A DNA stretch of 64,000 bases from Marsupella aquatica (taxonomy: Eukaryota > Plantae > Marchantiophyta). This document shows positions 13,033-36,651 of the stretch, in pieces (the first letter of the stretch is position 1; each line of letters begins with the position of its first letter). A program made the position numbers and the translations under genes. Below the pieces are notes generated by a model that was not told the DNA's origin, did no database searches, and saw only the letters and a list, made by a program, of their open reading frames with translations. Location of the stretch: NCBI GenBank assembly GCA_973895155.1, contig OZ316899.1, forward strand, positions 1,821,573 through 1,885,572. The letters are read 5' to 3'.

Positions 13033-13139
13033 TGTGATGCCTAGCCAGGAATCACTAGGCCAGTTTAAATGATAAAATAAGGAGTAAACCCTGGAAACAC
13101 ATTAGTATAGTAGCAAAAAGATGGAGAATATAAACAATT

Positions 13140-15451
13140 AAGGGTGGCTATGGAACCCGAGCCGAGGCCGGAAGTAAAAACGCCAGGGGAGGGAACACAA
13201 TCAGGGTTAGGGCGCGCTAAGTGCCGGCGGCTATAGGTAATTAATGGGAAGAAAGACCAATCAAGGAGGGGTAAGGATCGATCGCAAGGAATGGTGGCTC
13301 ATTTGCAAGCACAAACTAAGTAGACGACTACGGGAGGCCAACTACTGTCCGCTGCTCAGGCAAGCACTCGGGGTGGAAGTAGATACCGACAATCAACTCA
13401 AGAAGGGTATGAGCAACGTCACTCAAGCTGCTCATTTTTGGGGATGCCTGTTAGAACGAGCAACTGAGTACATTGGGACCTACGAGGACGAAGAATCGGA
13501 GAGAGCCGCTCGAGAACGGCAGGAGCTCGCTCGACTCTAAGTTCTGCAAAAGTCTACCTTCTTAGGAGGAGAACTCATCACGACTGAATTCCTGTGGACG
13601 CCTACTGCCGACAAACTGGACGATCTTCTGTTTTGTGAAGACAGAATAGTTGGCATCCGGGAAGCCATCAACCGCTGCAACGACATACACTGGGAGTTGA
13701 AGGGTAGCACGGAGGGGTGGACGAAGGCAACCGTGCTAGGAGAAACATCCACGGCAGCCGCTATGAAGAGAAAAGGGAACATCAATGAAGAGACCACCCC
13801 TACAAAGAGAACGAGGTTGGCGGCACCAAGGAAGCCAGCCGAGCAAGGGATCAGGAGGCAAGAAGAAGCCAAAGAAGAGGAGGTCAACCCCATCAATGTC
13901 GTTCCGACAAGAGATGACACCTGGAAAGGCTGGGCGGTGACCCTCCCCGAGGAAGTGCAATTACACTTTGCACGTGAAGAGGATGCATGCTTTACGGCTA
14001 TGCAGACTCAGAAGTAGCAAGGCTTCATGGCCGGATCTGGCTTGGAAGCCTTTGTGAAGTTACCATGGCTGAAGCCAGAGGTGCCGGATTCAGACTTATT
14101 AGAATTTTTGGGATCCTGGGAGCCCGAGTCCAATTCCACAAGGGTGTATGGGAAGGATTTCTATCTCACTCCCCGAGTAATTGCCGAAGCATTTGGCTTG
14201 CCGATGGGCAATAAGACCAAAGTTGATACGAGGAAGACCTTGCCTGACAAGGAGTTCCGATCGTTCTCAGGGCCATCAACGAGGAATGGCTTCTTCCGGA
14301 AGACCTGCACCAACCCGCACATTGGGGAGATGATCAATTTTCTTGCGGGTAACCATGCATTGCAACTTGTTGAGGCCAAAGATCGGCAAGGCACAGGTTT
14401 ACCTGGTGGAGAGGCCAGACCCCAGCCGGGACTACAACGGATACCTCCTCACCCAATTGAAGAAAATCTTGAAGGAGGAACAGCAGGTGATTGGCAAGGG
14501 AAGCGTGTCCCAGCTTGGCTATCATATGCCGCTGTTGTGCCGGTATGCCCGAAGTCAGATATTTGCCTTGGTACTTCCCCTGCAGGCAAGAGCACCAGAG
14601 GAGGTTCCAGAACAGAGGCCGGCAATAGAGAAACTGACCCAGTCTGATAGTCCTACAATCGAGCAGGTGTTTAGGCCGAGGAAGGAAGACTTGCCGATGC
14701 AGCAACCAGGCATGCAAAATCTGCTGAAATTGCTGGAGAAGGAAAGGAGAACGGCAACGGCAACGGCAACGGGACCGGTACAGAATACTGCTCCCGAAGT
14801 TGGCCTAAGCCAACTTACCAGGGAAAACCCCTTTACCGGGGCCAAGGAGAGAGGGAAGCCGGAACACGAGCCGGGAGTCCGAATGTATGTAGGAGCCTCA
14901 AGTCCCAAAGCCGAGGAAAAGCAGCCCGTAGCTCCTGGTCGCGATAGAGAGAAGAAGAGATCAACCTGGAAGCCGGAGGAGGAACCACAACCCGTGATCT
15001 GTGAGGCCATGTTCACGGCAAAACCAGGAGAGCAGCGGAGGGAGCCGGTAGTCCAAGCCGCGGAGGAAGCGGTAGAAGGCTACGACAATGATGACTCCAG
15101 CTACGGGTCGGACCATCATGTCCAGGAGTAAGGACCTGTGGCAGGTTCATCCCCACTCTTCCAAGAGTAGTTCAAGGGGACCCCACCCAGCAGAGCAGCC
15201 CCAAGTCTCCCCCACCAAATGTTGCGCCCCCGAGCTTTGACGGCATAAAATAGATGGCACAAGAGTTTGAGGAGCGACTCAGGGAGGAAGAGAGGGCAGC
15301 CCTGGCTAGGGAGAAAGATTTACCAGGGGGAGAATGGCCAGAGCACATCAGGCGGCTTGCAAAAAAACGAAGCAGCCCTCCAGCCACGATAGAAGAAATC
15401 CGCAAGGCGGCTTGGGAACAAAGGCCGCAATGGTTGATGCCAATGACTTTT
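13140..15451 (+). pseudogene. Family-B LTR-encoded accessory ORF, N-terminal and middle part (continues at 30964-31279 and 36844-37953)
   Basis: Stop- and frameshift-broken ORFs 13244-13540, 13697-14017, 14027-14647, 14343-15131 and 15254-15451 form one reading path that resumes after each insertion and ends ...EDQPPLP* at 37951-37953. Confidence 0.82.
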
Positions 15452-18400
15452 TGTGGCGCGTATCCCAAGACCTCTAACCCCAAGAACTACCCTCAACCAA
15501 TCGTAAACCACTTGTTTATGTCCGTCCTCTTGCCATATGGCAGCTATTCGGCTTGGAAACGCGATACTCTTCTTCGATCTAGACTTACCGGACCGATTCT
15601 TTCACTGGGCTTGTGAATCGTGCACAACTGAGACACCTAATTCCTCTTTAACTTCTTCAGGTATATTTGTATTCCGCCCCCGGAATGTACCTCTACGGCT
15701 TAATTTCTTAAGCCGGCTGAAGGTCTTTTTCAGACTGACTCAACCCACACTTCATCGACTAACACTCTCAATCCTCACTTTTCTCTCAGAGTTTGATTGG
15801 GCAGTCTCCAATCAAGACAATGTGATTGTATTTTGCTCAACAGTTCACCCTATCTGACTTAAATCGATCAAGCAACAAATATCACAACACTCAACTCTTG
15901 GATGGCAAGAATCTGCAAACTAGGCAATGAGGCCAACTCAATTCAAACAATTGCTCAGAAATCCAAGGAAACTGGTGGTTTACTGATACCCTGCGGTCTA
16001 GATTTAGCCGAGAGCTTCCTGTGCTCACAACAATACAGATTTACACTAAAGCCTTGACTAAGAAAAAGCCCCCTGAGCCACGCTGCCCAGGTTTTTATCC
16101 TTGCAGCGTATTCAGGAGAAAAAAGGCGGAAATCCTAACCACCACTCACAGCCTTCCACCGCGATAATCTTATTATTAACCAAAAACAAGACTAATCTGC
16201 CTAAGTCGGAAACCCGATAGATCTGGACTTCTAACATTAATCGAACTATTCAAGCCGACAAGGCGCTACTTGCCCTGTCCACATCCTACAACGGCCGCGC
16301 CCTCCTGGTCCAAGCCCTTCTCCTTCTGTCACGTCCTCCTTCCAACTGACGACTGGCCCGCCTTAATTGTCAGATGACCGGTGGTAATCCTGAGCCGTCC
16401 GACTCTGCACCTTCCCCTGTACTTGGCTTTGGCTGACTTCGCTCGGCCACGTTAACTATGGCTTTGGGTTTGGCCTCGGCTTCCTCCTCCTCGGCAACGG
16501 CCCGAAGAGCTTTTGCCTTAACTTCCTCAATCCAAGCCTGCTCCCCGATGCGCTCGGTCTCGAGAACCCATGGCTTTACGTTCTGGGCGTCCATAGAAGC
16601 AGTACCATCGTCTGATCCTGTTACCGCAGCTCCAAGTTGATCCGCAGTACTTACTTCTACCACAGTTGCCTTCAGGGCCACAGTACCGCAAATGTGAGCG
16701 GCCATGCTCTCGACTTCTTCCGGAGTGGCTTTAAGGGGCTTAACTTTATTATCGCCCGACCCCATAAATGTTTTTGCCAAATCTGCCACCAACTGCATGG
16801 CTTTGCCCCCAGTCACGCTTGACAGCAGTGAGCTCGGCTTCGGCTTTGGTTTTACTGTAACTCTGCCTACCATACTCCTGACGGGAAGCCTTTCAGTTGG
16901 TGACCCATATCCTGCTTCGGCATACTTCTTCAATTTCTCCGTTTGATTGTCGGCACGCCTCTGCAACCCGATCATCTTATCCTTGGCCTCCTCCAATTCC
17001 TGAGATACGTCTTCAACTTCATCGTTAAGCCGTAGTATCTCGGCCCTGGCCGTCTTCAGCTCCTCATTTAAGATCTGCACGATCTCCAACTCTTGCTTAT
17101 CTACGGTTGCCTTCAAAGAGTCGTTGATACCTTCCAATTTCGTGACCTCGTCCGTCCATGCCTGCTTTGTCCTGGTTAGCTCCTCTTGAAGCTCCTTGCG
17201 TATCTGTTGAACCCGGTTTAGGTGATCATTGGCCGTTGTGCACATGGCGTCATCATGCTTCTCCCGCATGGTCTCCAACCGGTCGAGTAACTTGTCATAC
17301 TTCCTTTGGGCTTCAGCCAAGGCCTTCTCGCTCTGGGTGGCCTGCTCCTTAGCCATCTTTCTGAGCCTCTCAACTTGGCAATTTAAACCCTGTACTTCTG
17401 CTTTTGAATCGGCTAACTCCAGCTCTATCTTCATCAACTTTTCCTTGATCTGCTGGTCATCCAATTGGTAGTTTCCCAATTGGTTGTTCGCCACTTCCAA
17501 TTCCTGCTGCTTAGCCAAGAGATCCTGCTGTGCTTGTTGATTCACCCTTGAATTAGCCACCTCTGCTTTCATGCCACGAAGCCGAGCGATCACTTCCTCC
17601 TTCTTCAATTGCTCCAATGTCATTGCCTCCTCCAGTCTCGTCTGATCAGCCATTTCTTTTCTAAGAAATGGCCCGGATTCTAACTCGTTGCCGAAGATTT
17701 CTAAGGCTAAGAGTCCACACATGTCTCCATACTCCTTAGCCGGATTCCTTGCATAGTTTGACCTCCCAGGTGATACTGGCATCTGCCATCGAGATCGTCT
17801 CTCCCAAGCCTTTGCCTGTAATTGATCAAAGTGAGTGGGAGGTTCTTACTAAGCCGTCTTATTTCTTCCGGCCACTCTCCTCCTGGTAGCTGGTATTCCT
17901 ATTCTGCATTCTGGGCCCCCCACTCCTTAATCTTCTCATGTAGCCCGGCTTCAGCTTCCTTCATCTTGTCAAATTCCAATGGCGTCACATCTGGTGGAGG
18001 AGATTCTGGTGTTTTCTGGTCCTCCGGCTTGCCATAGAAGACCGCGGGAAGTCTTCTACAAAACCTTCCCATCGTTCTAACTCCTGGTACCGGCCTCTCC
18101 CCGTGATCGACATAGTCGTCGTCGTAATCATCCACATTAACCTGACTACCTAGCATGCCGGCCTCTCCTCCAAAGCCCCCGATCTCTTCCTCTGAATATT
18201 GTTGGGCTGCTGCTGGTTGACCTTCCTCCATGGGTCCCTCCACATGGGCTCTGCTAGAAGCTCTTACTACCGGCCTCTCCTGGCTTTAGCTTACCTCCTC
18301 ATCTATCTCTGAATCCATTCGCTCATCATATTTCTTTCTCTCTTTGGTAGTCATCTTCCTCTCGACCAACTGCATGCCTGCATATGGATTATTACGAGTA

Positions 18401-20036
18401 GGCCGGCGCAACGGATTTCTCACTACATCATATGTTACTACCTCTGGCTCCTTGATAGGGGAATGCTCCCATTCTTGTGTTGCCTGTGTTGCCGACCTCC
18501 TCCCGTGGCGTCGTATGTTTAGAGGCTCCTCATCCTCCTCCACCTCCTCAAGTGGTGCAGTGATCTGCATCCGTTCTTGTATAGGCAATACTGGTTCAAA
18601 AGACTGGCTTCTTGCATATCGGCAAAGTAATTGCAGATGGTACCCTAGTCTGGATATCGCTCCCTCCCCAATGCTCTGCTTCTCTTCGTTTAATGCCTTC
18701 TTCAACTACATTAAGAGATAGCCGTTGTAGTCCCGGCTTGCATCGATATTCTCCACCAAAAATACCTGGGCTTTGCCAATTTATGCTCTCGGCAAGGTAC
18801 AATGCAATGTGACTCTCAGGAAATCAATCAGTTGCCCTATATGTGGGTTGGTACATTGATTCCTAAAAAACCCATTCTTAGTGGAAGGCCCTAGAAATGA
18901 CCTGAACTGGTCATCCGGCAACGTCTTCCTTCCAATTGGTAGAGCAAACACGGCTTCGATAAGCGCAGGTGTTAGTTCGAACACCTTTCCATACAACAGC
19001 GTCGTGTTGGAAGAAGCCTCCCAGCATCCCACGAAGTCCAACAGATCCTCATCCGGTATGTCTACCATCCTCCAGGACAACCTGACAAAGCCCTCCAACC
19101 TAGTGTCATTCATATATCCTACATATTTATTATCCTGAACGGCACTGAAGACCTCATCCTCATCTCTTGCGAACTGTAATTGTAAATTGGCAGGTAACCT
19201 GTCCGCCCACCCTGTCATGGTTTTATCCTCTACAGCCCGATCTCTAACTGGCCCGGATTCCATCTTGATTGGTCTCTCTGACCTAGTTTGCTTTGCTGGA
19301 GTTGCGGATGCCGAACCTCCCTTGCACTTCATCTCTTCAGCGCCTGAATACTCCCCAAGAATAGCTGCCTTCGTCCACTTTGCAGTGTGACCCTTTAATT
19401 CCCAAAGTGGCTGTCGTGCGTTCTTGATTGCCTCCCTGATCCCCACGACCTTATTCTCCCGAATCAGCAATTTGTCAAGCTCCGCACTGGTGGGTGTCCA
19501 CGAGAAATTTTCCAACACCTCCTCCGTATCTACAAATGCCAATTTGTGAATTCCCCACAATCACGCAAGCTCCGCTCGTTCTCTGGCTACGCGCTCTGGC
19601 TCAACGACTTCATACGTAGGTATCAGCTGCCTTGCTTCTTCAAGCAAACAGTCCCAAAACTTCCCTGCCTGATTCACCGTGTTCATTCCACCGAATGCCA
19701 AGAACTTGCGCAATTTCCCAAACCACCTCCCCCGATCGATCGGCAGCTGATTCCACCTCCCTAGGTTGATCGAACAAGCAATTGCACAAGTGTACAGAGT
19801 GTCGGTCCCCTTCCTACGAAGCCGTCTCCTGATGGCTTACCTGATCAAGCCCCGATTAGGTCATAACCCTGATCCTACTTAATCGCGACCGTTGGATCCG
19901 CTCCTATCACAATCTCCCCCGAACACGTTGCAATCGGCTTCGATCCTTATTCCTCCCTTATTCTATCTACCTAATCTTTATTTAGCCATTATTTTAGGCT
20001 TAACTAAGTACTTCATGATCCTGGCAAGGCATCACA
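15452..20036 (-). repeat. Family-A 3' LTR (4585 bp)
   Basis: Begins directly after the PPT on the minus strand; collinear with 26526-30963. Confidence 0.92.
16370..19840 (-). pseudogene. Family-A LTR-encoded accessory protein (3' LTR copy): N-terminal FWGxLLE domain, plant-transposon/PMD-like domain, acidic linker, long coiled coil
   Basis: ORFs 18781-19560, 18286-18705, 17899-18243 and 16370-17782 (470 aa, heptad-rich) lie in series inside the LTR. The domain label is by motif resemblance only. Confidence 0.75.
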
Positions 20037-21353
20037 TAGCTCCCCACTTAATTGTGAAGCATCCTCGCAAACATCTTCAAATTCATACATGTAGTATTTT
20101 TTAAGCCTATCATAATGTACTCTTACAGGATAAATCTCACCCGTGATATTGGCTAGTTGGACTGACCCATTGGAGAACATCATTTCCACTTTGTATGGTC
20201 CTAACCAGCGAGGGTAAAGCTTCCCAGGGAATTTTACGGACCTGTTGTCATACAGTAACACTAGATCTCCAGTTTGAATACAGATTGGTCTTAACTTCTT
20301 ATCGTATCTCTGCTTCATTTGTTCCTGTCGATACTTCAATCTTTCTGATGCTATCAACCTAGCCTCCTCCAATGCTTCTAGTTGGTACAACCTTGCTCTC
20401 CTACTCTCGGCCTCCGAAAGACGTCGTATAGTAACTCGATAAGTGGGAACCTCCAACTCCATTGGTACCAAAGCCTCCTGCCCAAACGTTAGGAAATAAG
20501 GTGTATGTCCCGTAGTCGTTTTGTAGTTGTAAGCAAAAACAGCAGCGTACAGCTTGTCATCCCAGTCATCCTTGTGGTCAGATACCGTCTTGTTCAGTAT
20601 CTTACCAATGATTCCATTTGCACGCTCGGTAAGTCCATTGGCCTTAGGATGATAGGGAGTTGTAGGCCGATGCCGAACCAAGTATTGCTCATTAAGCCGA
20701 CCGACCATATCATTTAGGAAATGAGTCCCCCAATTGCTGACCAGGTCAAGAGGCGCCCCATACCTGGTGAAAATCTGCTTGTATAAAAATCGAGCAGTTG
20801 TAACAGCATCATCTTTCGTCATCGGCCTAGCCTCTACCCATTTGGTGGCATAATCAGTGGCCAGAATGATGTACTTATTCCTCCGAGGATAAGTTTTTGG
20901 TTTCAAAGGCCCAATGTAATCAATCCCCCACTTTTCAAATGCAACAAGGGGTAAAAGTGGATGCAATGGATGTCTACTGGCAGCGCTTGGTCCCCCCGCT
21001 CTTTGACAAGGATCACACTCCTTAATGAATTGATGAACATCCTTGTGTAAGGTTGGCCACCAGTAACCGACATCCAATATCTTACGTGTGGTAACTACTG
21101 GTGCAAAATGGCCTCCGGCCACCTCGCCGTGCATTGCTTCCATTACCTTCCGGGTTTCATCCCTCTCCAAACATCTCTGGAGATTACCATATGCTCCCAA
21201 TCTATGCAACACTCCCTTGATGACCTGATAACGTGCTACTTTTCGCAAAAACACAGCCTTCTGCTCTCTGGTCCATGCCGTATTCAGTCGTGCTGTACTA
21301 AAAAATCCCAATATCTCAGGGTACCAAGTATTCGAATTCTTGATCTGAAACAA
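20013..21353 (-). CDS. pol: Integrase domain of family-A pol (HHCC, DDE core, GPY/F tail)
   Basis: GGHF...CDPCQR, WGIDYIGP, NGLTERAN, WLGPYKV. The second catalytic Asp motif reads SNWGTHF (mutated). The ORF runs through the PPT and 24 nt into the LTR. Confidence 0.92.
   Translation of the reverse strand: MFQIKNSNTWYPEILGFFSTARLNTAWTREQKAVFLRKVARYQVIKGVLHRLGAYGNLQRCLERDETRKVMEAMHGEVAGGHFAPVVTTRKILDVGYWWPTLHKDVHQFIKECDPCQRAGGPSAASRHPLHPLLPLVAFEKWGIDYIGPLKPKTYPRRNKYIILATDYATKWVEARPMTKDDAVTTARFLYKQIFTRYGAPLDLVSNWGTHFLNDMVGRLNEQYLVRHRPTTPYHPKANGLTERANGIIGKILNKTVSDHKDDWDDKLYAAVFAYNYKTTTGHTPYFLTFGQEALVPMELEVPTYRVTIRRLSEAESRRARLYQLEALEEARLIASERLKYRQEQMKQRYDKKLRPICIQTGDLVLLYDNRSVKFPGKLYPRWLGPYKVEMMFSNGSVQLANITGEIYPVRVHYDRLKKYYMYEFEDVCEDASQLSGELCDALPGS
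20037..20049 (-). promoter_or_regulatory. Polypurine tract of the family-A element
   Basis: AAGTGGGGAGCTA on the minus strand, immediately followed by TGTGATGCC. Confidence 0.9.
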
Positions 21354-24300
21354 TTCCTCATCCGGAAAACAGTCGTCAATGCAATCTGTTGCTGGGTCAC
21401 CTGGTACTCTGGAAAAGAAATCAGCATTTGCGTGTAACTTTCCAGGTTTAATCCTTAATTCGTAATCAAATTCCTACAATAGAAGTATCCATCGGGCCAC
21501 TCGTCCTGTAAGATCCGGCTTATTTACTAAGTACTTCAAACTTTCATGATCTGTATGGAAGATCACACGGTACCCCAATAAGTAATGTCGAAACTTTTTA
21601 CATGAGTAAATGACCCCTAACGCCTCCCTCTCTGTAGTCGTGTAGTTCTGCTTGGCTACAGCTAAATGTCGGCTTGCAAAATAGATGGGGTGGTCCTTTC
21701 CCTTATTATCTAACTGACTTAGAATGGAGTCGATGCAGAACCCTGAAACATCTACAAACACATGAAAATCCTTATTCCAATCAGGTGCCATCATGACGGG
21801 TGCTTCAACCAACTTTTGCTTTAACTGTATCACAACCGTAACCCGTTCAGGTGTCGCTTCAAAATCTGAACCTGTTTTGAGCATGTTGGTTAACGGAAGT
21901 GCTAGCTTGGCAAAATCCTTGATAAACCTGCGATAGTAACCAATACAACCCAAGAAAGATCTGACATCTTTTATATTCTTGGGCTGCATGATATCGAGCC
22001 ACACGGCTAATTTTCCCTTATCAATTTTGATTCCCTTCTTGGATACCTTGTGTCCAAGCAGGACACCCTGAGTTACTCCAAAGAAACATTTATCTTGATG
22101 TAGCTTCAATCCCACCTGTCTGCATCTTTCAAAGGTTCTTCGTAAGTACTTGGCATGTTTGGACGCCTTCCCAAACACAGCAAAATCATCGATGAATATC
22201 TCCAGGAATTTCCTTAGGTAGTCGTGAAATATGTTAACCATCAACCTTTGGAACATAGCTGGCGCATTACACAATCCGAAAGGCATCCGGTTAAACACAT
22301 AAATTCCCCACTCCGTAATAAAAGCGGTTTTGATCTGGTCCTCTTGCCTGATTCTGATTTGATTATATCCAGAGTATCCATCCATGAAAGAATACAACTC
22401 ATGGCTAGCTATAGTGTCTAGCACCATATCAGTAAAAGGTAATGGAAAATGATCCTTCAAAGTGGCGTCATTTAACTTTCTGTAATCCTGGCACACCCTT
22501 ATCTTCGGCTTGCCATCCGGTCCTGCCTTCTTGGGTACAATGACAATAGGAGACACCTAGTCTGAATGGAGAACTGGTGTAATAAAGCCGACCTCCACCA
22601 ACTTGTCGATTTCTGCTTTTACCAACAAAGAATACTTTGGATTCATCCTCCTCATTGGTTGCCTAAATGATTTGACTCCCAACATAAGGTCAATCCGATG
22701 CTCCCCCAATTTTGGGTCCACTCCTTGTAAATCAAGGTGACTCCAAGCAAAAACATCCTGGTATTCCATAAGTAACTCACTGATTTCCTCTTCGATTTTG
22801 GGAGCAAGATCCCTACCCAGATTTACCTCCCGACCCTCTCCCAACTTGAGCTTCCTGTATTGCTTTGATTGAATCATGTTGATTTGCTTCTTTAGATTTG
22901 GATCTAGGTTTGCTTCCAACCTGTCCAACCTCATTCCTCCATATACTGGAATTTTGGGCTCCGTGGTTGCTTCTATCACCTCCGCTGTTGTCTCCCCACA
23001 GGAAGAAGTAGCTTCTTCAATGATGGTGTTGATTTCCACTAGAGTAGATCCGTTCGGTTTCGGCTTCCCTTCTAGCCTTAGCATTTTCAACCTCATTTTT
23101 TTAGTAGCCGGTCGATACCTTAGCTCACTCGGAACAATTGACTCCAAACATGCTTTATTTATTGTGACAGCAGGTACCTCTGATCGAATTGACTGCAACG
23201 CCTCCTGATTTGTCTGCGTAGCTGCCTGGTCTGCCGAGTGAGTCTTTGTAAGCGGAGTGACCTTTTCATCAACCAGCGCTGCCAACTCCGGCCACTGTGC
23301 CACAGCGCTTGATGAAAATCCACCATCTTGGCATTGGGATCCTTGGATAGAACAAGTTCCTCCACTTGGACCTGTGATTCGGCTTCTTTATCCATGATGA
23401 TGGATTCCAAAAAGGCGGCCTCAATTGCAAAGCAGTTGTCAGCCGAGACTTCCTGGCATTCTGAATCGCCTTCCTCTATGATAGGTTCCATGCGACTCTT
23501 CCTTGCTAACATTAGTGGGATTGAAATGGGCTCTTCCTCAATCTCCGGAATGATTGGCCGCATGGAATCTGTGTCTCCCTTCCAAAGTCCGCTGGGAGGT
23601 GTGTCAGGTCCAAACACACTCGCTTTTGATACCCCTGATAAGCATTCTAGCCAACGCACATCATTGGCAGATTCTAACCCAGTATCATAACCGTCTGCTT
23701 CACGAATCAACCTGGCTGCTTCATCCTCTACCTCCCATGACATGGTAATAGGTGGAGTTCTGAATGTAAACTATTTTGTGCCCCAGTTTTCCATAACTTT
23801 CGCAAGGTACAACCAGGGTCGTCCTATCAACACCCGAAATGAGGTAGGGTTCATCGGCTTCATCACAATGTAATTGATGCTGAATGCGATACCACCAATC
23901 TCCGTGCGTATTCCTTTAAGAATGCCAGTGGGAACTACCTGATAGCCATTGGCCATATTCAGCACCCTTCCTGTTAATTCTGGTTTGAATCCCCAAGCCG
24001 CCGCTGTTGAATCAATGAGTATGCATACCCCAGACCCTCCATCGATTGGTACATGCATAATCTTTTCTTTATTGATGATGACTGGTAAGCAAGGGGCTCC
24101 CCTATCCTCCTGAATCATCATGACATCCGTACGAGTGGCTACTCTAGGAAGCCTCGGCTTCCCAGCAATGACTTTTTTCAACTGCTTCCAAAAATATGGG
24201 CTATTTTTTAATAATTGACCCACAGTAGCCGTAACGCGTGATTCCAACACATCCTTTGCCAAGTTGTATGGCACCAGCTGTTTCTCTGTGTCATCCTCCT

Positions 24301-24421
24301 GGGGTAGTTTAATTGCTCTAAGAGGATTCTCCTGAGTTGGTAATGATTCTGGTTCCTTTGGTTCTAGAGGTGTGCTTGGTGAAGTCAGTGGTGACACACT
24401 CCTGTCCTCCACTATTCTCAT
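21354..24421 (-). pseudogene. pol: Family-A pol: aspartic protease, spacer, RT and RNase H, with premature stops
   Basis: PR HVPIDGGSGVCIL; RT VCQDYRKLN, YSFMDGYSGYNQI, FIDDF; RH VDVSGFCID. In-frame stops at 23771, 22557 and 21474, plus a frame break near 23300. Confidence 0.92.
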
Positions 24422-26465
24422 TGAAGCGGAAACAATTCCTCCTTTATTCGCTTGCCAGCTCTCTTAATGTCCTTCTGGAGTGCAACCTCATTCTCGTCCT
24501 TCTCCAGCTCTACCAACTGCTCCTTCACACTAGCCATGACTGCTGGAAAAAATAAACTGGGATGCGTACGATCAAAATCACTATCCTGGGAAGGACTGGG
24601 ATCACCAGGTACAACTTGCGGGTCCTCATTGACAGGGGCCTTGCCGTTAGAACCCGAAGACGTGGAATCAGACGCATCTTCCTTCCACGGCTTCTAGTTC
24701 TTGATAATTTCCTCCCACCTTTGCTTTCTTCTGGTGGATCTAGTGGACACACGGTAACAATCGGCATCAACCTCTTCTTCGGAATAAGTGGACAGGGCGT
24801 CTGCTTCATCGTCAGAAGGTGCAAATTCTCCTCGTGGTTCTTCACGCCATCCTAAGTCAATATGATTCACCTGGGCTCCTCCCGGCATAGTTCCTGCCGG
24901 TAATACCTTTGGTGCGGGTTTGACAGGTACAGCAGCCATCCCGGCTAACCAAATAGGGCATTGGGTAAGTATATGCCCTTCTCCTTTGCAACCCATACAA
25001 AGCTTGACTGGCTGACCATCCGCCTGCTTCCTTGCATTGGTGCACTCCCGAGAGAAGTGACCTGGTTGACCTGGTTGTAGCATGCTGCAAATCTCTGAAC
25101 ATTTGGTTGTGGAGGGGTAGTTGGATTTTGAATGATGCGGGGATACATCTCCCCTTCATTAGTTCTCAACGCTCCCCACAAAGAAGTGGGTCGGTTAGCC
25201 AAATCTCGGGCTCCGGCCTCACTGATACCGAACACACTATCCGCGGCATCTCCAAGTATGTACTCCACCTCAAACTCCCCTATCGTTCCGTCGGTTATCA
25301 ATCGAACATGCTTTGTACCACGCTTTGGACAGACATCCTTATGATGTCCGGTGGTATAACAGTGAGCGCACCATACTAAAGTGTCATCGGTTGGCTCCTT
25401 CTTCACCGGCTTTGCGTTGGCTAATAATGCCTTCAGTTGCTCCGTGATAGCTGTCAACTGATCCGGAGATGCCTTCTTGGGATCCAACTTGGTTTTCACC
25501 TTTTCCGCAACCCTCTCTTTCTTTGTGATTTTCTTCTTCTTACTCCTGTCACCATCCTCCGAGCTGGAAGATGTTTCACTCTTACCGGTATCACTCTCAG
25601 AGCTACTACTCTCCTCCTTGGTTTTCTTGGATCGCTTCTTCTTGGCCTTTTTCTTGCCGGATTCCTCCTCTGAAGATGAATCCTCAGACTTATAGTGTTT
25701 TTTCTGGCTCGTGATATCAGCATTGATGTATAACTGAATATCACGAATCACCTCTGCTAAAGACTCCGGATTCCCCTTCCTAATTGCGAAACTCATCTTC
25801 TGAGGTAGAGCATTAACCAACCACTGCAACTGCATCTCGTCTGATGCATTGGTCTTGGTTTGTCGCACCAATTTGTGGAATCGCTGCAAGAATTTCCGGA
25901 AAGACTTGTTCTCCTTGAATTGAAGCCGTCCTAGCTTCAACATTGCCAACTCAGACGTCCCAATGGGACGGAACTCCTTGACAAACAGTTGCTTGAAGGT
26001 GACCCATTCATTCTGCTCCCCTGGTTCCAAATTGGAGTACCATGGTCAAGCCTCACCCTTAAACAACCTGGGTAAGATCTGGATCTTGATAGCAGACTCT
26101 CCATTACCAGTTGCAGTCCCATCAAACTCCTCCAGCCAGTCATCCGGATCCTCCTCATGTTTACCATGAAATGCTTTGTAATGGATTTGTGATCTCTGAC
26201 TGAGCCGTGGTGCTGCTCGCCCACCAAATTGTGGATCCGGCTCACCCATCTCTTGCACTGGTGAACTGGGTTGGGTACTGGGCGCGTTACTACTCAACAG
26301 ATCCCCTTCCACGGTTTCCAATTCCACTCCAAAAGCACTTCGTGAACCGCCGTTGCCGATGGCAGTCTTCACCCTCTTCGACTCTTTCCACCTCGCAATT
26401 TTCTGCAACCGCGCTTCTTCCCTTAGTGTTGCTCGCTCTTCTCGTGGTGTGAATTTGTTCATCAC
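24422..26465 (-). pseudogene. gag: Family-A gag with three CCHC knuckles; premature stop at 26046 and frameshifts
   Basis: EDPDDWLEEF and LFKGEA*PWY capsid motifs; knuckles CAHCYTTGHHKDVC, CYN.GQPGHFSREC (frameshifted) and CMGCKGEGHILTQC. Confidence 0.88.
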
Positions 26466-26503
26466 CTAACACTGCGCAACAAACAATCCACAAGTAAGAA
26501 TGC

Positions 26504-26521
26504 CCCCTCCATCTAGCGCCA
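26504..26521 (-). promoter_or_regulatory. Primer-binding site, probably tRNA-Asn
   Basis: TGGCGCTAGATGGAGGGG, 4 nt after the 5' LTR end. It differs by one base from the complement of the plant tRNA-Asn(GUU) 3' end as I recall it (TGGCGCTAGAAGGAGGGG). Confidence 0.75.
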
Positions 26522-26525
26522 AAAA

Positions 26526-29500
26526 TGTGGCACGTATCCCAAGACCTCTAACCCCAAGAACTACCCTCAACCGATCGTAAACCACTTGTTTATGTCCGTC
26601 CTCTTGCCGTATGGCAGCTATTCGTCTTGGAAACGCGATACTCTCCTTCGATCCACACTTACCGGACCGATTCTTTCACTGGGCTTGTGAATTGTGCACA
26701 ACTGAGACACCTAATTCCTCTTTAACTTCTTCAGGTATATTTGTATTCCGCCCCCGGAATGTACCTCTACGGCTTAATTTCTTAAGCCGGCTGAAGGTCT
26801 TTTTTAGACTGACTCAACCCACACTTCACCAACTAACACTCTCAATCCACACTTTTCTCTCAGAGTTTGATTGGGCAGTCTCCAATCAAGACAATGCGAT
26901 TGTATTTTGCTCAACAGTTCTCCCTATCTAACTCAAATCGATCAAGCAACAAATATCACAACACTCAACTTCTTGGATGGCAAGAATCTGCGAACTAGGC
27001 AATGAGGCCAACTCAATTCAAACAATTGCTCAGAAATCCAAGGGAACTGGTGGTTTACTGATACCCTGCGGTCTAGATTTAGCCGAAAGCTTCCTGTGCT
27101 CACAACAATACAGATTTACACTAAAGCCTTGACTAAGAAAAATCCCCCTGAGCCACGCTGCCCAGGTTTTTATCCTTGCAGCGTATTCAGGGGAAAAAAG
27201 GCGGAAATCCTAACCACCACTCACAGCCTTCCACCACGATAATCTTATTATTAACCAAAAACAAGACTAATCTGCCTAAGCCGGAAACCCGATAGATTCG
27301 GACTTCTAACATTAATCAAACTATTCAAGCCGACAGGGCGCTACTTGCCCTGTCCACATCCTACAACGGCCGCGTCCTCCTGGCCCAAGCCCTTCTCCTT
27401 CCGCCACGTCCTCCTTCCAACTGACGACTGGCCCGCCTTAATTGTCAGATGACCGGTGGTAATCCTGAGCCGTCCGACTCTGCACCTTCCCCTGTACTTG
27501 GCTTCGGCTGACTTCCCTTGGCCACGTTAACTATGGCTTCGGGTTTGGCCTCGGCTTCCTCCTCCTCGACAATGGCCTGAAGAGCTTTTTGCCTTAACTT
27601 CCTCAATCCAAGCCTGCTCCTCGATGCGCTCGGTCTCGAGAACCCACGGCTTTACGATCTGGGCGTCCATAGAAGCAGTACCATCGTTTGATCCTGTTAC
27701 CGCAGCTCCAAGTTGATCCGCAGTACTTACTTCTACCACAGCTGCCTTCAGGGCCACAGTACCGCAAATGTGAGTGGCCATGCTCTTGACTTCTTCCGGA
27801 GTGGCTTTAAGGGGCTTAACTTTATTATCGCCCGACCCCATAAATGTTTTTGCCAAATCTGCCACCAACTGCATGGCTTTGCCCCCAGTCACGCTTGACA
27901 GTAGTGAGCTCGGCTTCGGCTTCGGTTTTATAGTAACTCCGACTACCATACTCCTGACGGGAAGCCTTTCAGTTGGTGACCCATATCCCGCTTCGGCATA
28001 CTTCTTCAATTTCTCCGTTTGATTGTCGGCACGCCTTTGCAACCCGATCATCTTATCCTTGGCCTCCTCCAATTCCTGAGATACGTCTTCAACTTCATCG
28101 TTAAGCCGTAGTATCTCGGCCCTGGCCGTCTTCAGCTCCTCATTTAAGATCTGCACGATCTCCAACTCTTGCTTATCTACGGCTGCCTTCAAGGAGTCGT
28201 TGATACCTTCCAGTTTCGTGACCTTGTCCGTCCATGCCTGCTTTGTCCTGGTTAGCTCCTCCTGAAGCTCCTTGCGTATTTGTTGAACCCGGTTTAGGTG
28301 ATCATTGGCCGCTGTGCACATGGCGTCATCATGCTTCTCCCGCATGGTCTCCAACCGGTCGAGTAACTTGTCATACTTCCTTTGGGCTTCAGCCAAGGCC
28401 TTCTCGCTCTGGGTGGCCTGCTCCTTAGCCGTCTTTCTGAGCCTCTCGACTTGGCAATTTAAACCCTGTACTTCTGCTCTTGAATCGGCTAACTCCAGCT
28501 CTACCTTTGTCAACTTTTCCTTGATCTGCTGGTTATCCAATTGGTAGTTTCCCAATTGGTTGTTCGCCACTTCCAATTCCTGTTGCTTAGCCAAGAGATC
28601 CTGCTGTGCTTGTTGATTCACCCTTGAATTAGCCACCTCTGCTTTCATGCCGCGAAGCCGAGTGATCACTTCCTCCTTCTTCAATCGCTCCAATGTCATT
28701 GCCTCCTCCAGTCTCGTCTGATCAGCCATTTCTTTTCTAAGAAATGGCCCGGATTCTAACTCGTTGCCGAAGATTTCTAAGGCTAAGAGTCCACACATGT
28801 CTCCATACTCCTTAGCCCAATTTCTTGCATAGTTTGACCTCCCAAGTGATACTGGCATCTGCCATCAAGGTCGTCTCTCCCAAGCCTCTGCCCGTAATTG
28901 ATCAAAGTGAGTGGGAGGTTCGGCTTGCCTCTTACTAAGCCGTCTTATTTCTTCCGGCCACTCTCCTCCTTGTAGCTGGTATTCCTGTTCTGCATTCCGG
29001 GCCCCCCACTCCTTAATCTTCTCATGTAGCCCGGCTTCAGCTTCCTTCATCTTGTCAAATTCCAATGGCGTCACATCTGGTGGAGGAGATTCTGGTGTTT
29101 TCTGGTCCTCCGGCTTGCCATAGAAGACCGCGGGAAGTCTTCTACAAAACCTTCCCATCGTTCTAACTCCTGGTACCGGCCTCTCCCCGTGATCGACATA
29201 GTCGTCGTCATAATCATCCACATTAACCTGACTACCTAGCATGTCGGCCTCTCCTCCAAAGCCCCCGATCTCTTCCTCTGAATATTGTTGGCTGCTGCTG
29301 GTTGACCTTCCTCCACGGGTCCCTCCACATGGGCTTTGCTAGAAGCTCTTACTACCGGCCTCTGCTGGCTTTGGCTTACCTCCTCATCTGTCTCTGAATC
29401 CATTTGCTCATCATATTTCTTTCTCTCTTTGGCAGTCATCTTCCTCCACCTCCTCAAGTGGTGCAGTGATCTGCATCCATTCTTGTATAGGCAATACTGG

Positions 29501-30963
29501 TGCAAAAGACTGGCTTCTTGCATATCGGCAAAGTAATTGCAGATGGTACCCTAGTCTGGATACTGCTCCCTCCCCAATGCTCTGCTTCTCTTTGTTTAAT
29601 GCCTTCTTCAACTACATTAAGAGATAGCCGTTGTAGTCCCGGCTTGCATCGATATTCTCCACCAAAAATACCTGGGCTTTGCCAATTTCTGCTCTCGGCA
29701 AGGTACAATGCAATGTGACTCTTAGGAAATCAATCAGCTGCCCTATATGTGGGTTGGTACATTGATTCCTAAAAAACCCATTCTTAGTGGAAGGCCCTAG
29801 AAATGACCTGAACTGGTCATCCGACAACGTCTTCCTCTGCTCCACCTTAGTCTTCCTTCCAATTGGTAGAGCGAACACGGCTTTGATAAGCGCAGGTGTT
29901 AGTTTGAACACCTTTCCATACAACAGCGTCGTGTTGGAAGAAGCCTCCCAGTATCCCACGAAGTCCAACAGATCCTCATCCGGTATGTCTACCATCCTCC
30001 AAGACAACCTGACAAAGCCCTCCAACCCAGTGTCATTTATATATCCTGCATATTTATTATCCTGAACGGCACTGAAGACCTCATCCTCATCTCTTGCGAA
30101 CTGTAATTGTAAATCGGCAGGTAACCTATCCGCCCACCCTGTCATGGTTTTATCCTCTACAGCCCGATCTCTAACTGGCCCGGATTCCATCTTGATTGGT
30201 CTCTCTGACCTAGTTCGCTTTGCTGGAGTTGCGGATGCCGAACTTCCCTTGCACTTCATCTCTTCAGCGCCTGAATACTCCCCAAGAATAGCTGCCTTCG
30301 TCCACTTTGCAGTGTGACCCTTTAATTCCCAAAGTGGCTCCCCTGCGTTCTTGATTGCCTCCCTGATCCCCACAACCTTATTCTCCCGAATCAGCAATTT
30401 GTCAAGCTCCGCACTGGTGGGTGTCCACGAGAACTTTTCCAATACCTCCTCCGTATCTACGAATGCCAATTTGTGAATTCCCCACAATCGCGCAAGCTCC
30501 GCTTGTTTTCTGGCTGCGCGCTCCGGCTCAACATCTTCATACGTAGGTATCAGCTGCCTTGCTTCTTCAAGAAAATAGCCCCAAAACTTCCCTGCCTGAT
30601 TCACCGTGTTCATTCCACCAAATGCCAAGAACTTGCGCAATTTCCCAAACCACCTCCCTCGATCGATCGGCAGCTGATTCCACCTCCCTAGGTTGATCAA
30701 ACAAGCAATTGCACAAGTGTACAGAGTGTCGGTCCCCTTCCTACAAAGCCGCCTCCTGATGGCTTACCTGATCAAGCCCCGATTAGGTCATAACCCTAAT
30801 CCTACTTAATCGCGACTGTTGGATCCGATCCTATCACAATCTCCCCCGGACACGTTGCAATCGGCTTCGATCCTTATTCCTCCCTTATTCTATCTACCTA
30901 ATCTTTATTTACCCATTATTTTAGGCTTAACTAAGTACTTCGTGATCCTGGCAAGGCATCACA
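26526..30963 (-). repeat. Family-A 5' LTR (4438 bp)
   Basis: Collinear with the 3' LTR apart from a ~180-bp deletion near 29443; ends CCACA before the PBS. Confidence 0.92.
27445..30790 (-). pseudogene. Family-A LTR-encoded accessory protein (5' LTR copy)
   Basis: ORFs 29612-30700, 28865-29242 and 27527-28858 duplicate those in the 3' LTR. Confidence 0.78.
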
Positions 30964-31279
30964 CTTCTACTCACTCCGCCTATGCTAAAGAAAGAGCCAT
31001 GGAGTACGGGGAGATGTGTGGGGAACTTGCGCTCAGCATCTTTGGGGAGGAGTTGGACGAGGGACCCTTTTCCAGAGGGAGATGTTGGAGAAGCGCCAAT
31101 TAGAAGAAGCGGTGGGTTTGGAGAGAAGCAAGAAGGACAAGGTCATCCGTCGGCTTAGGGCAAGGGAAGCCAAGGTAGAAGACTTGAAGGCGGCCAAGAA
31201 AGCCCAAGATGAGCTGCGGATTAAGCGGCATGAGCTAAACATCATGCAGGGGCAATTGGATACCGCGCAGTCTGATAAT

Positions 31280-31466
31280 TGTTAGAATATATTTAACCCT
31301 TAGTACATATGATACAAAGAGGTATGCAATACCTAGATATAAAGAGACACAAGACTAGGAGAGGGTAGTTACAACTACCCCAATGTACAACATATAATAA
31401 CCCACATTGGCTTAAGAGAAATTTCAATCATCTTTTATTGGTGTATATATATTTCACAATTTAACA
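31280..31466 (+). repeat. Copia 5' LTR
   Basis: TGTTAGAA...TTTAACA; direct repeat of 36652-36838. Confidence 0.95.
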
Positions 31467-31468
31467 CA

Positions 31469-31478
31469 TTATCAGCAC
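31469..31478 (+). promoter_or_regulatory. Copia primer-binding site of the non-TGG, Bianca-type class
   Basis: TTATCAGCAC, 2 nt after the LTR, with no TGG start. Confidence 0.65.
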
Positions 31479-31627
31479 ATGATTTTTCTCCTCCAACAAC
31501 TCTCGAGCTACTCATAGGCCTCTTGTGAATTTTTTCCTATTTTTCTTGTGAACGAAGCATCGAACGAAATTCCCCAAGACACATTTTCTTTTCTTTTGCC
31601 AAGTACACCACAAAATTTTCATCGACT

Positions 31628-34600
31628 ATGACAACATTGGAGAAGCTCCAATTCCCATTGCTCGCAACAGATGGCGACAATTATTTATCTTGGGCACAGA
31701 ATACAGAAATTGTTCTCAACATGAAAGGTCTCGGCGACATTATCTTAGCAGATATCAATGGCACATTACAACAAAAGGCTCAGGCACTATATATCATTCG
31801 CCATCACCTCGCTGCCGAACTACAACTTGAATACCTTACAGAGTTTAATCCCCGAGCCCTATGGGACGCTCTCAAATTGAGGTTTGACCATCTGCGTCTA
31901 ATTTCCCTACCAGCTGCACAAAATGAATGGATTCATTTACGAGTTCTAGACTACCCTACAATTGCCAAATTCAATAGCGCCTTATTTCGGATAACTGCTC
32001 AGCTAGCAGCCTGCGGCGAACCAATTGATGAAGCAGCAAAGATCGAAAAGACTCTTTCTACATTCTCAGCAGCAAACATGCAGTTACGCAGATTTATAGA
32101 CAACGCCATTTCACCCAATTCTCAGATTTGATTGCAGTCATGCTCCTGGCTGAAAAGAATGACCTCCTCCTTTTGAAGAACTCTCGCGAGCGACCACCAG
32201 GCACGCTTCCTAAACCGGAAATACAATTCATGAATACCAATAGAGGTAATCCCTCTTACAACCGACCTCGTGGCCAATTTAAAGGCAATCCAAGTTGTTT
32301 TAATAAATTCCACAAGAGACAACAATTTCGCACAGACAAAGGCAAAAACTTCAAGCCCCCCATGAATTCTTGGTATCGTAACCCCAATCAAATGCCAAAT
32401 AAACCTGCACAGAGTTATCCCACAAATAATCAGCCCAAGTGTTTCCGTTGCGGTGGGACAGGGCATATCCAAAAGAATTGCAGAGTTCAAGCTCACCTAG
32501 TCAAACTATACCAGGCCTCCCTCACAACATCCAACACCTTAATAGCCGCACATCACTTGGAGATCGATGACGATCTCTCCAAATCACGCTTACACCTCCC
32601 GCACCAGAGGTTCATATAATATCACATGAAGTAAATGACACATCTCTCGCTGGTGCTGATATTTGCATTCTTGACAGCGGCACTTCTCACTCAATCCTAA
32701 AAGACAAATGTTATTTCCAGCACATATACTCATCAAATAGACCTGTGACTACTATCACAGGTATAAACCAATTAGAGGAAGGCCATGGAACTGCCCAACT
32801 TACCCTTCCTCAAGGCACAACCATTAAAATTGCATCTGCCATATATGCCCCACTCGCGACACGGAACTTACTAAGTTTCCATGATGTCCGTCAAAACAAT
32901 CTCCATATACGCTCTGCACCCGACAACCACATAAACTCTCTACAGATTTTTCGAGAAACTGATAATGGCCCCATCACACTAGAGACATTACCACTCCATC
33001 CCCCCGGCGTTTATGCCACTAAGATCATGTCTTACAATTCCCAACGACAACAATTATCCCCAACAGAATTATGGCATCCGCCTCGGCCACCCAGGCCCAG
33101 GGATGTACCATAAAATTATGAAGAACACCATTGGCATACCAAAAGGAGTACACCCATACACAAAGTTAGACACTTGCATCCCCTGTGCACAAGGCAAATT
33201 TATCACTCATCCAGCTTCCACCAAGAACACCTATCAAATCCCTGACTTCCTCTCACAGATCAATGTGGACGTTTGCGGACCTATTGATCCACCGAGTGGA
33301 CCATTTAGGTTTTTCCTAGTAATGATATGCTCCTCCACCAAATGGTCCTCTGTTTCTTTAATTTCCACAAGAAACCTTGTCTTTGCCAGACTGCTAACAC
33401 AGCTTATACGTCTTCGCACTCAATTCCCTGACTCTCCTACCAAAATAATTCGAATTGATAATGCTGGCGAATTTACATCACCAGCATTCAATGACTTCTG
33501 TCAAGTCCTGGGCATCACAATCCAATACTCAGTACCATATGTACATTTCCAGAATGGTACTGCAGAGGCATTAATAAAACGTTTATAGATGATCTCAAGA
33601 CCTATGCTATTACAGACACAACTCCCACTTACAGCCTGGGGACATGCTATACTCCATGGCGCTGCACTACTGCGATATAGACCATCGGCTTTTAATATTT
33701 ACACACCACACCAACTAGCATATGGCTCTATACCAGATATTACACACCTGAAAGTGTTTGGCTGCCTTGTTCTAGTACCCATTCTTGGCCCCAAGCACAC
33801 CAAGATGGGACCACAGCGTCGACGTGGCATCTATGTTGGCTATGACTCTCCCTCGATAATAAGGTATCTCGAACCCACCACTGCTGATGTGTTTCGAGCT
33901 CGATACCAGGACTGTAAATTCTGTGAAGACATCTTCCCAACACTTCTAACTCCAGCACAACTCTCCAAACAGCCTGTCTCAACACACACATTAGAATGGA
34001 CAACAAAGGATCCATTCTTGAATGATCCTCGTACTCAATTGACAAACGATGAAGTGAAACGCATTCTGAATCTCCATCAAATTATGGAGAAAATACCTGA
34101 CGCATTTAATGATGCTACAAATGTAACGAAATCACATATAGATGCAGCCAATAGTCCTGCGAGAATTCATATACCAGATACACGAGCCACAGATCTCGCT
34201 CCCAAGGCTAAACGAGGCAGACCTTCAGGTTCCAAAGACTCTAGACCACGACAGAAGACACCTGTATCAACACATTTATCCTTACAATTACCACCAATTA
34301 TACAGGATGACAATGAAGAAATATCCATCCACTATATGCATACTGGACATTTATGGCATCGAAATTTAACTGAACCAGATGAGCATTTTGCTTTTCTTAT
34401 ATCCCAGGATATAACTAAAGATTTACCAGAACCTTGGACAATTAAAGAAGCACAACAACGACCAGACTGGCCCAAATGGAACTCTGCTATTAACTCTGAG
34501 CTTGATTCTCTGATATCTCGCCAAGTTTTTGGAGAACTCCGAATCGTCCCTGCTGCACAACACCTAACTAGGTATAGGATTATATTGATACGCAAACATA

Positions 34601-36297
34601 ATGCCGCAGGTGAAGTAATCCGCTACAAAGCCAGACTTGTGGCTAGAGGCTACACACAAATATATGGCAAAGATTACGACCTTACTCATTCACCGGTCAT
34701 GGACTCCATTACCTACCGATATCTGATTGCTTTTGCCCTCACACATCAAATTCGTATGCATCTTATGGACGTGGTAACTGCTTACCTTTACGGTATACTT
34801 GATATTGACATACAAATGCAAGCTCCACCTGAATTAATTCAGAGGGTAATTTTCCACATTAAGGGGGAGCATACAACCTCCCCAACCCCGGACCTAAAGT
34901 CGGGTATTGATAAGATTGTCCCTACACAGGACTTTCAAGACCATCTCATTCACTCAGGCCAAATGATACCTGCTGAAATACATGACTCATCAGCGGTCCA
35001 AAATAAAAAGGCCCAGCAAATTGCTAATGGTGAACAGTCAGCGGATTCACCATTGAATTATACTGAATTACTCGCTGAGGTAAATCCTGTTCACCACAGA
35101 ATCAATAAAGCCAAGAAACCAGAGAAAGCATTTGCTGTACAGGTTCTTAGGTCACTCTATGGTTTAAAGCAGAGTGGCTGCATCTGGTATAAACGTTTCC
35201 GTGCAGAGATGCTTGCACTTGGTTTCGTGAATGAGGACATTGCCCCTTGCCTTTTTATCAAAAGACATGGCACTGAATTTATAATCATAGCCATATATGT
35301 CGACGACATTAACCTAATGGGTACTAAACTCATTATGGATCAAACCATTACCACACTTAAGAGCATATTCGAAATGAAGGATATTGGTCAACCCCTATTT
35401 TGTATTGGCATTCAATTCAAACATTTATCCAACGGTATTCTTATTCATCAATCTACATATACCAGAAAACTATTAAAACAATTCAATATGGACAAAAGCT
35501 ATCCAGTCACGACACCTATGGAAATTCAATCTTCAAACACATCCAAAGATATGTATAAGCGCAGGACCGAACACGAACCAATCTTGGGCCCAGAGAAACC
35601 TTACCTCTCTGCTATAGGAGCCTTGATGTACCTGGCAAATCAAACCCGCCCAGACATCTCGTTCGCTGTCCACTTGCTTGCTCGCCACAACTCCCAACCG
35701 ACTATTAGACATTGGAATGGCATTAAGAGGATACTCCGCTACCTTCAAGGTACAATCGATACTGGCCTCTATTACCCTAAAGATGTACCTAACGAATTGA
35801 TTGGTTACGCAGATGCAGGTTACCTTACGGACCCCGATGATGCGAAATCCCAGACGGGATATGTATTTCTACAAGGACATACAGCCATATCCTGGAAAAG
35901 TACCAAGCAAACTTTGACGACCACATCCTCCAACCATGCGGAAATCATAGCACTATACGAAGCCAGCCGAGAATGCCTGTGGCTTCGACAACTTATCAAT
36001 CACATCCAGTCGTCTACAGGCCATGCAATTCTTACCAAGCCTACTATCATCTACGAGGATAACAAGCCTTGTGTTGACCAGATAGTTAAGGGCTTCATCA
36101 AGGGCGACCGAATCAAACATATTGCCCCCAAATTTTTCCACACGCATGAACAGCACGGGGACCAAATCAATGTTCAATGGATACCTTCTAAAGATAATCG
36201 CGCTGACCTTTTTACGAAGCCCTTACCTCGCATTCTCCACGAAGCGCATTCGACTGGAATAGGACTCCGTAGATTATCGGACTTCACTGCAATCTGA
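31628..36297 (+). pseudogene. pol: Copia gag-pol polyprotein with frameshifts (~32090, ~32600, ~33075) and one stop (33586)
   Basis: gag LEKLQFPLLATDGDNYLSWA; knuckle CFRCGGTGHIQKNC; PR ILDSGTSHS; INT NVDVCGP, IRIDNAGEF, NGTAEALIK; RT SLYGLKQSG, YVDDIN; RH GYADAGY, IYEDN, ADLFTKPL. Confidence 0.93.
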
Positions 36298-36642
36298 CTT
36301 CCCCACCTCTTCCATAAACTTCTTATTCCATTGCGACTCGACAACATTATGTTTCCCCACAATACTTCCTCTGTTCTATGCATATTCTACTGAACGTATG
36401 TTCTCCATACTCGAACATTTCGACACATCCTATCAAACACTCGTTTAAATTTAGCCATACATGATTACACTCCTTTCTTACTAGTTTTAACTCATTACAT
36501 GTAAGGTAGTGACACTCTTTTTACCCCAGAAGAAAGCAGGGGGTTTTTAATGAGGTCATACCCCAATGAGTTTTTCCATTATATTCAGAACTAGGCTTAA
36601 ATTTATTTCCAAAATGGCTACTTTAAGAAACATAAAGTAACC

Positions 36643-36651
36643 AAGGGGGAG
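36643..36651 (+). promoter_or_regulatory. Copia polypurine tract
   Basis: AAGGGGGAG directly before the 3' LTR. Confidence 0.9.

Follow-up and report, generated by a model that had tools for sequence, protein, structure and literature searches.

A 64,000-nucleotide stretch of the genome of the liverwort Marsupella aquatica (contig OZ316899.1, positions 1,821,573 to 1,885,572; hereafter the window, whose coordinates are used throughout) contains a Ty3/gypsy retrotransposon, family A, at 15452-30963 on the minus strand. Both of its long terminal repeats (LTRs) enclose the same open reading frame (ORF) of ~1,100 codons, and this LTR ORF is a real gene under purifying selection that lies inside the LTR. 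The element belongs on the Athila/Tat side of Ty3/gypsy and is probably Athila-related. Plant LTRs are usually treated as non-coding, and a coding LTR is apparently undescribed in plants; no plant LTR with an internal gene came up in the literature searches, although examples scored as ordinary extra ORFs may be present in the tables of elements in PMC6317226 and PMC10508981. We propose that the gene entered the LTRs through a switch of polypurine tract (PPT) and that its product, predicted to have the fold of VANC21, would bind the word AAGCCG and prevent silencing. Taken as a whole, this account stands in our judgement evenly between right and wrong.

A gene within the LTRs of family A

The boundaries of family A were established by BLAST of the window against itself and by the junction sequences. 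The two LTRs (4,585 bp at the 3' end and 4,438 bp at the 5' end) are direct repeats that are 96.8% alike, with 140 differences over 4,405 aligned bases, 119 of them transitions, and they account for 58% of the 15,512-bp element. Both open with TGTGATG and close with CACA. A PPT lies directly against position 20036 of the 3' LTR, and a TGG-type primer binding site (PBS), which is probably of the tRNA-Asn type, lies 4 bases beyond 26526, the inner edge of the 5' LTR. The LTR lengths, the 58% share, the PPT and the PBS all agree with a first-pass annotation that had been made from the nucleotide sequence alone.

Pfam detected gag, reverse transcriptase (RT) and RNase H (RH), as well as integrase (INT), between the LTRs in the order gag-RT-RH-INT; a protease was recognised by its motif only, with no Pfam match. 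No chromodomain was detected by Pfam after the integrase, which is the feature of non-chromovirus OTA elements, and when the internal ORFs were scanned with Pfam they showed no second RNase H of the kind that marks Tat elements (TatI-III, Ogre, Retand), RH running straight into INT. The integrase frame crosses the PPT and reaches its stop codon within the LTR, so that family A has no 3' internal region. The element is inserted into an LTR of a second family, family B, and is flanked by a 5-base target site duplication (TSD) with one mismatch; its insertion site is single-copy (empty) in the family B copy B3, at about 46292. The gag gene, RT-RH-INT order, LTRs, PBS, PPT and TSD are those of a Ty3/gypsy element.

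Divergence between the two A LTRs is 3.1% in the head, 3.1% in the ORF and 3.4% in the tail, which fits copying of the LTR as one unit. Read depth over the element was continuous and high in four public runs. The summed depth ranged from thousands to more than 100,000 in all 30 bins (public runs, two organisms), indicating that the family is high-copy in two organisms.

The ORF begins at LTR nucleotide 351 in A and at 376-377 in B; from its end to that of the LTR there remain 918-919 nt in A and 887-902 nt in B. Similarity between A and B opens at the common ATG, ~350-376 nt into the LTR, and closes at an equivalently placed stop ~0.9 kb from the end. The first-pass annotation had reported an ORF in each LTR, together with solo LTRs of both families flanked by TSDs. 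The solo LTRs were confirmed, each with a perfect 5-bp TSD, and they and the selection analysis below support a gene in the LTR; an unbroken frame was found in none of the six LTR copies in the window. The solo A copy has lost the ORF end to its deletion and carries an insert as well, and the B copies contain stops, frameshifts and nested elements. A stop common to the three A copies in the window does not represent the family, because at least 99% of the family depth carries another letter at that position in four of four public runs.

As a check on purifying selection, the annotation had named a ratio of nonsynonymous to synonymous substitution (dN/dS) below 1. Comparison of A with B gave 0.23-0.27 for the N-terminal half of the LTR ORF, with upper 95% limits of 0.34-0.38 (six pairs, transition weight kappa 4; NG86 without transition weight saturates), and 0.53 for the C-terminal half (one pair). 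The corresponding values were 0.30 for gag and 0.06 for RT, and comparison of A with solo A gave 0.34-0.42 for the LTR ORF. The ratios between 5' and 3' LTRs (0.48-0.65 and 0.43-0.60, with intervals mostly including 1) are read as post-insertion decay.

Table 1. Coordinates of family A, its LTR ORF and the family B and solo LTRs in the window
Feature	Position	Strand	Basis or remark
Family A 3' LTR, 4,585 bp	15452..20036	-	self-BLAST, junctions
Family A 5' LTR, 4,438 bp	26526..30963	-	self-BLAST, junctions
Left TSD of family A	15447..15451		right copy 30964-30968, one mismatch
Active PPT region, integrase frame reading through	20037..20066	-	junction sequence
Primer binding site	26504..26521	-	junction sequence
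gag (Retrotrans_gag, zinc knuckle) and pol (RT, RNase H, integrase), decayed	20013..26250	-	Pfam
LTR ORF, 3' LTR copy, 3,317 nt from ATG to stop	16370..19686	-	5 in-frame stops and a frameshift
LTR ORF, 5' LTR copy, 3,169 nt	27445..30613	-	2 stops, 179-bp deletion, single-base indels
N-terminal domain	30140..30613	-	A vs B ~50% identical
Core domain, ~215 aa	29507..30151 (3' LTR copy 18601-19224)	-	predicted VANC21-like fold
C-terminal half, heptad-rich, likely coiled coil	27587..28855	-	sequence; Fez1 match sub-threshold only
Non-coding 0.9-kb tail	26526..27444	-	conserved A vs B; likely ancestral short LTR
Family A solo LTR	40535..45389	-	5-bp TSD, 1.09-kb insert, 849-bp deletion
Family B 3' LTR, ~4.73 kb	13033..38840	+	pieces 13033-15451, 30964-31279, 36847-38840
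Family B solo LTR, ~4.71 kb	39026..59169	+	5-bp TSD; pieces 39026-40534, 45390-46829, 57405-59169
PPT-like tract right behind the ORF stop in B	58274..58312 (also 37954-37992)	+	likely remnant of the former terminal PPT

Relatives of family A and the origin of the coding LTR

Conservation along the core domain of the LTR-ORF protein was nowhere high enough in the alignment to search for loci with it, and an RT alignment was used instead. A scan of metagenome contigs with it gave 16 loci, of which 8 extend beyond pol, 5 have an accessory ORF and 3 distant ones served as the outgroup. RT trees were built from 59 of 122 rows after coverage and label filters, and later from a chosen subset of 34 rows. 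Among named RT relatives, those of Calypogeia fissa, a leafy liverwort, come nearest (67-68%). The RT tree, which includes no REXdb-labelled references, placed family A in a bryophyte-type clade apart from the angiosperm matches. The window element, Calypogeia and loci L001, L002, L003, L005 and L010 grouped with 100% bootstrap, their sister group of L006, L007 and L009 had support of 100, and the angiosperm relatives branched outside both groups in the 34-row tree.

The sister locus L009, a collapsed circle, has the order pol, PPT-like tract without TG after it, ORF, second tract, ~990 bp, PBS and gag. Its ORF is intact at 742 codons and is homologous to the core (E 1.4e-9), and the second tract is near-identical to the PPT of the window element and is followed by the same TGTGATG. 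The LTR of L009 is likely ~1 kb long, with the gene in its ordinary place before it. As a separate observation, positions 1-10852 of L009 make up a near-complete Athila-like element. A terminal-type tract with TG stands directly after pol in L001, L002, L003, L005 and L010. Comparison of the TG start with the end before the PBS matched at 12 of 13 bases in L010 and at 9 of 13 in L002, for which a different register gave 10 of 13 at another place. The homologous ORF of L002 begins ~470 nt inside from the LTR start. These arrangements suggest a likely single origin of the coding LTR, through a change to the upstream PPT, and show that it is not confined to this genome. The gene would have come to lie inside both LTRs when plus-strand copying began to start at the PPT before it and no longer at the one behind it.

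The ancestor in this proposal would have had the order pol, PPT, gene, PPT and 1-kb LTR, like L009. The upstream tract then came, quite probably, to set the 5' end of the LTR, so that spacer and gene became U3 and the old LTR survived as the 0.9-kb tail; from then on the U3 spacer and gene would be copied to both ends in each round. In the standard replication mechanism the U3 of the 3' LTR alone is transmitted, and selection therefore acts through the 3' copy. Daughters would inherit that copy alone, and the 5' and solo copies may only add protein in trans. The annotation had also assigned the ORF to U3. This is the placement we favour, because the L009 homolog lies between pol and the terminal PPT and because the tail is better conserved than the head (A-B conservation z 67 for the 0.9-kb tail vs z 4.8 for the 0.35-kb head). 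The choice of PPT thus offers a simple route, in this clade, to a four-fold growth of the LTR together with the gain of a gene, and both states are present among the relatives.

The LTR-ORF protein, its candidate target word and rival readings

In the LTR-ORF protein an N-terminal domain precedes the core of ~215 aa, which is joined by an acidic linker of low complexity to a likely coiled coil. A model of the core from an alignment of 25 rows had a predicted local distance difference test score (pLDDT) of 85 and a predicted template modelling score (pTM) of 0.83; a model from 8 rows (pLDDT 32) was not taken to the fold search. VANC21 (9lnk) was the sole chain with Z>=2 among 48,161, with Z 8.1, a root-mean-square deviation of 4.0 and 195 aligned residues, and VANC21 (9lnj) ranked first in Foldseek (E 0.57, template modelling score 0.42). 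The matched VANC21 structure is DNA-bound. The core is therefore predicted to share the VANC21 fold, and passages of PMC13547354 tie VANC to the MAIN fold. Leads from the Atlas, below 0.9, were Transposase_32 (0.85) and ATHILA (0.84), and the N-terminal domain fell below the recognition level there. A Protein Data Bank sequence search gave nothing under E 0.19, a viral fold library gave nothing under E 0.07, and word-index protein searches with the LTR ORF returned nothing or one query member only. Calypogeia proteins made up 5 of the 20 LTR-ORF homologs that were looked up.

VANC proteins bind short motifs that have accumulated in their own element, according to passages of PMC5735166. The most enriched of all hexamers in family A is AAGCCG, with 29 copies vs 5.6 expected (~5-fold). 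In 9 of 12 A and B segments its count exceeded every one of 100 dinucleotide shuffles, the three exceptions being a 667-bp gag piece, a 1.4-kb pol piece and one 1.4-kb LTR piece (2/100). Under synonymous codon shuffling, 19 copies compared with 5.2 expected, a count reached in 0/1000 shuffles. The long interspersed nuclear element (LINE) in the window has no copy of the word and the copia element has one. A TCCGGA-type word is enriched in L001, L002, L003, L005 and L010 (0/300 synonymous shuffles in four of four pol genes tested), AGCGCT in L009 and AAACCG in L007; no enriched word was found in the three distant gypsy loci. TTAGG, noticed by eye as a frequent word, was not significant after correction and was set aside. 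Two further observations concern the form of the words: L009 has tandem AGCGCT(ACA) clusters in its non-coding parts, and the LTR tails in the TCCGGA clade (L010 1-1394, L005 4987-6092) are very word-dense, with 150-220-bp duplications that recall VANC target arrays.

By analogy with VANC, the core may bind DNA and the coiled coil may oligomerise, whereupon bound elements would lose their silencing marks; to this step we give roughly even chances. A broader version extends VANC-like anti-silencing to the whole clade, with a PPT switch to U3, coevolving CG words and solo LTRs that supply the anti-silencer in trans, and reaches to the Athila 'env-like' ORFs, whose role is a long-standing open question and which would then be anti-silencers as well. 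A solo LTR would unite promoter, gene and target sites in one self-contained unit that outlasts the host's deletion of gag-pol. We put this version forward tentatively, as the less probable of the two.

A number of observations weigh against our proposal. The Z score of 8.1 is middling by the scale of the tool, identity to VANC21 is 7% and the Foldseek E-value is 0.57; Pfam matched nothing in 8 members or in the core of 34 homologs. Having the same fold is no evidence of function, and proteins of the MAIN type work in silencing. AAGCCG is dispersed and occurs on both strands, unlike the VANC targets, which passages of PMC5735166 describe as non-coding tandem arrays. It is also enriched in two unrelated inserts, at 6317-8990 (8 vs 1.0) and 46830-57404 (8 vs 2.4), and is frequent in the distant L016, and L006 has no enriched word. 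The CGs of AAGCCG are better kept in some copy pairs only: CG loss in the word vs elsewhere was 0/12 vs 30/115 (p 0.07), 0/11 vs 42/130 (p 0.03), 1/17 vs 25/157 (p 0.47) and 5/15 vs 59/173 (p 1.0). With regard to the origin, L009 is represented by a single collapsed contig that carries the LTR once; its ends are a poor match, and it has no similarity to the A and B tails. The outgroup locus L007 also has TG after its post-pol tract, the presumed vestigial PPT was the best LTR site for three of seven query tracts in B3, two of seven in B2 and one of seven in A, and the polarity depends on a single complete outgroup locus together with angiosperm Athila.

Some of these points favour a different function on the same architecture and origin. 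The protein could be a transactivator, an integration-targeting factor or a particle factor, with AAGCCG serving a host protein or RNA packaging. A middling fold match and the presence of AAGCCG in unrelated inserts are in keeping with this, and the functions of the Athila and Retand extra ORFs are unknown according to passages of PMC7264820 and PMC11963269. However, the sole fold match is a DNA-bound anti-silencer, and the word, which stands on both strands, varies by family and always contains CG, which suits coevolution of protein and target over a single host factor. We regard this alternative as a possible one, slightly less so than the clade-wide version.

The other alternatives concern the architecture itself. 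If an Ogre-like gene upstream of gag had been absorbed as the primer site moved downstream, the ORF would lie in R or U5 and the 350-nt head would be the old LTR. This is improbable: in the outgroup the homologous gene is found downstream of pol, conservation is far higher in the tail than in the head, and minus-strand strong-stop DNA of more than 4 kb would be needed, although the transcription start is itself placed by inference and TATAAA stands ~275 nt before the ATG in three of three B heads (A has no TATAAA at that position). Marginally less probable still is a coding LTR that was ancestral in bryophyte elements and was shortened in L009 through the downstream PPT. The whole layout is seen in one outgroup locus and L007 has its TG after the post-pol tract, as this would have it, but the angiosperm relatives branch outside both groups, and angiosperm Athila4 and Calypso have an internal gene plus an extra PPT according to passages of PMC2829016. 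We give almost no credence to a true LTR of only the last 1 kb, with the remainder a local duplication or assembly artefact. The tail does have an ordinary LTR size; the PPT adjoins the long start, divergence is alike throughout, depth is continuous in the four runs, and the TSD-flanked full-length solo LTRs of two families refute the idea, as the annotation had argued.

Solo LTRs, neighbouring inserts and known systems

A solo LTR is a recombination leftover that cannot move by itself. The annotation had proposed that solo LTRs are a route for spreading the protein without gag-pol. This is not supported: a solo LTR retains the gene yet has no means of spreading it, and both solo LTRs in the window are broken. 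A solo LTR would form a complete transcription unit only if the 350-nt head held a promoter; if the message is spliced from the 5' LTR, the solo copies would be silent.

Other features of the LTRs and their surroundings were also noted. A stem-loop at 27120-27200 (minus strand, z -3.8) in the A tail surrounds a block conserved in B and has an A-rich loop, and may be a polyadenylation element; the hairpin was not supported in the B segment tested (z 0.3) and is not used as evidence. The 1.09-kb insert of solo A (42650-43736) has CACTA-type inverted ends. The family B 3' LTR, with B pol and PPT just upstream, hosts element A and a copia element (31280-36846, plus strand) with LTRs of its own of 196 bp that are 97% alike. 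The B solo LTR contains a 10.6-kb insert (46830-57404) that is likely a Mutator-like element: a 9-bp TSD flanks it, its terminal inverted repeats are degenerate, and one of its minus-strand frames, now decayed, has a SWIM-like motif. An internally deleted B element (4381-11406, minus strand) retains the first 2.3 kb of the LTR, part of gag and the last 1.27 kb of an LTR, between flanks that are not a TSD. It interrupts a decayed LINE (1-4380, plus strand; zinc knuckle, endonuclease and RT), and its gag holds a 2.7-kb insert (6317-8990) with short tandem arrays, one of which has a 26-bp unit that includes AAGCCG; this could be a non-autonomous element with the same word. At 61300-64000 (plus strand) lies a third, more distant core homolog (62357-62958, E 6e-34). 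It has a coiled-coil tail and a frequent CG word of its own, AGCCCG, in 9 copies, and a TATA box is clearly visible near 61337.

Related proteins are here paired with different candidate target words (AAGCCG, TCCGGA and AGCGCT), which makes the proposed function testable. If it is correct, sequence-specific anti-silencing reaches beyond the VANDAL DNA transposons, and solo-LTR formation, the main route by which the host removes such elements, would leave a counter-defence gene in place.

Among known systems, Athila (non-chromovirus/OTA in REXdb) has a sense extra ORF between pol and the 3' LTR (ATHILA PF03078, Transposase_32 PF20167). Family A shares with it the domain order, the lack of a chromodomain and of a second RNase H, the 5-bp TSD and a sense accessory ORF after pol, and the layout of L009, with its gene between pol and the terminal PPT, is the Athila layout. 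Unlike in Athila, the gene of family A lies downstream of the active PPT and hence in the LTR, there is no internal spacer, the protein has no Pfam match and the PBS is probably of another type, that of Athila being tRNA-Asp. The PBS of the window element also differs from those of L002, L009 and L010. A protein-coding frame in U3, duplicated in both LTRs, is known from mouse mammary tumour virus sag and lentiviral nef; these belong to animal retroviruses and encode unrelated proteins of about a third of the size. Ogre and Retrosat2/RIRE3 resemble family A in combining LTRs of 3-6 kb with an accessory ORF, but passages of PMC6431247, PMC3485330 and PMC6317226 describe this ORF as internal and upstream of gag-pol, and the LTRs as non-coding. 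The liverwort Tat elements Z1 and Z2 are likewise bryophyte elements on the Tat/Athila side without an additional RNase H, in passages of PMC10508981 and PMC13468544 that discuss neither an extra ORF nor LTR length. VANC21 of VANDAL21, a Mutator-like DNA transposon, and the MAIN-type plant mobile domain proteins share with the LTR-ORF protein the predicted core fold, a probable coiled coil and a candidate family-specific short word enriched in the element. Family A differs from VANC21 in its host, a gypsy retrotransposon, in the 7% identity of the protein, and in having a dispersed CG-containing hexamer in place of a 9-mer in non-coding tandem arrays.

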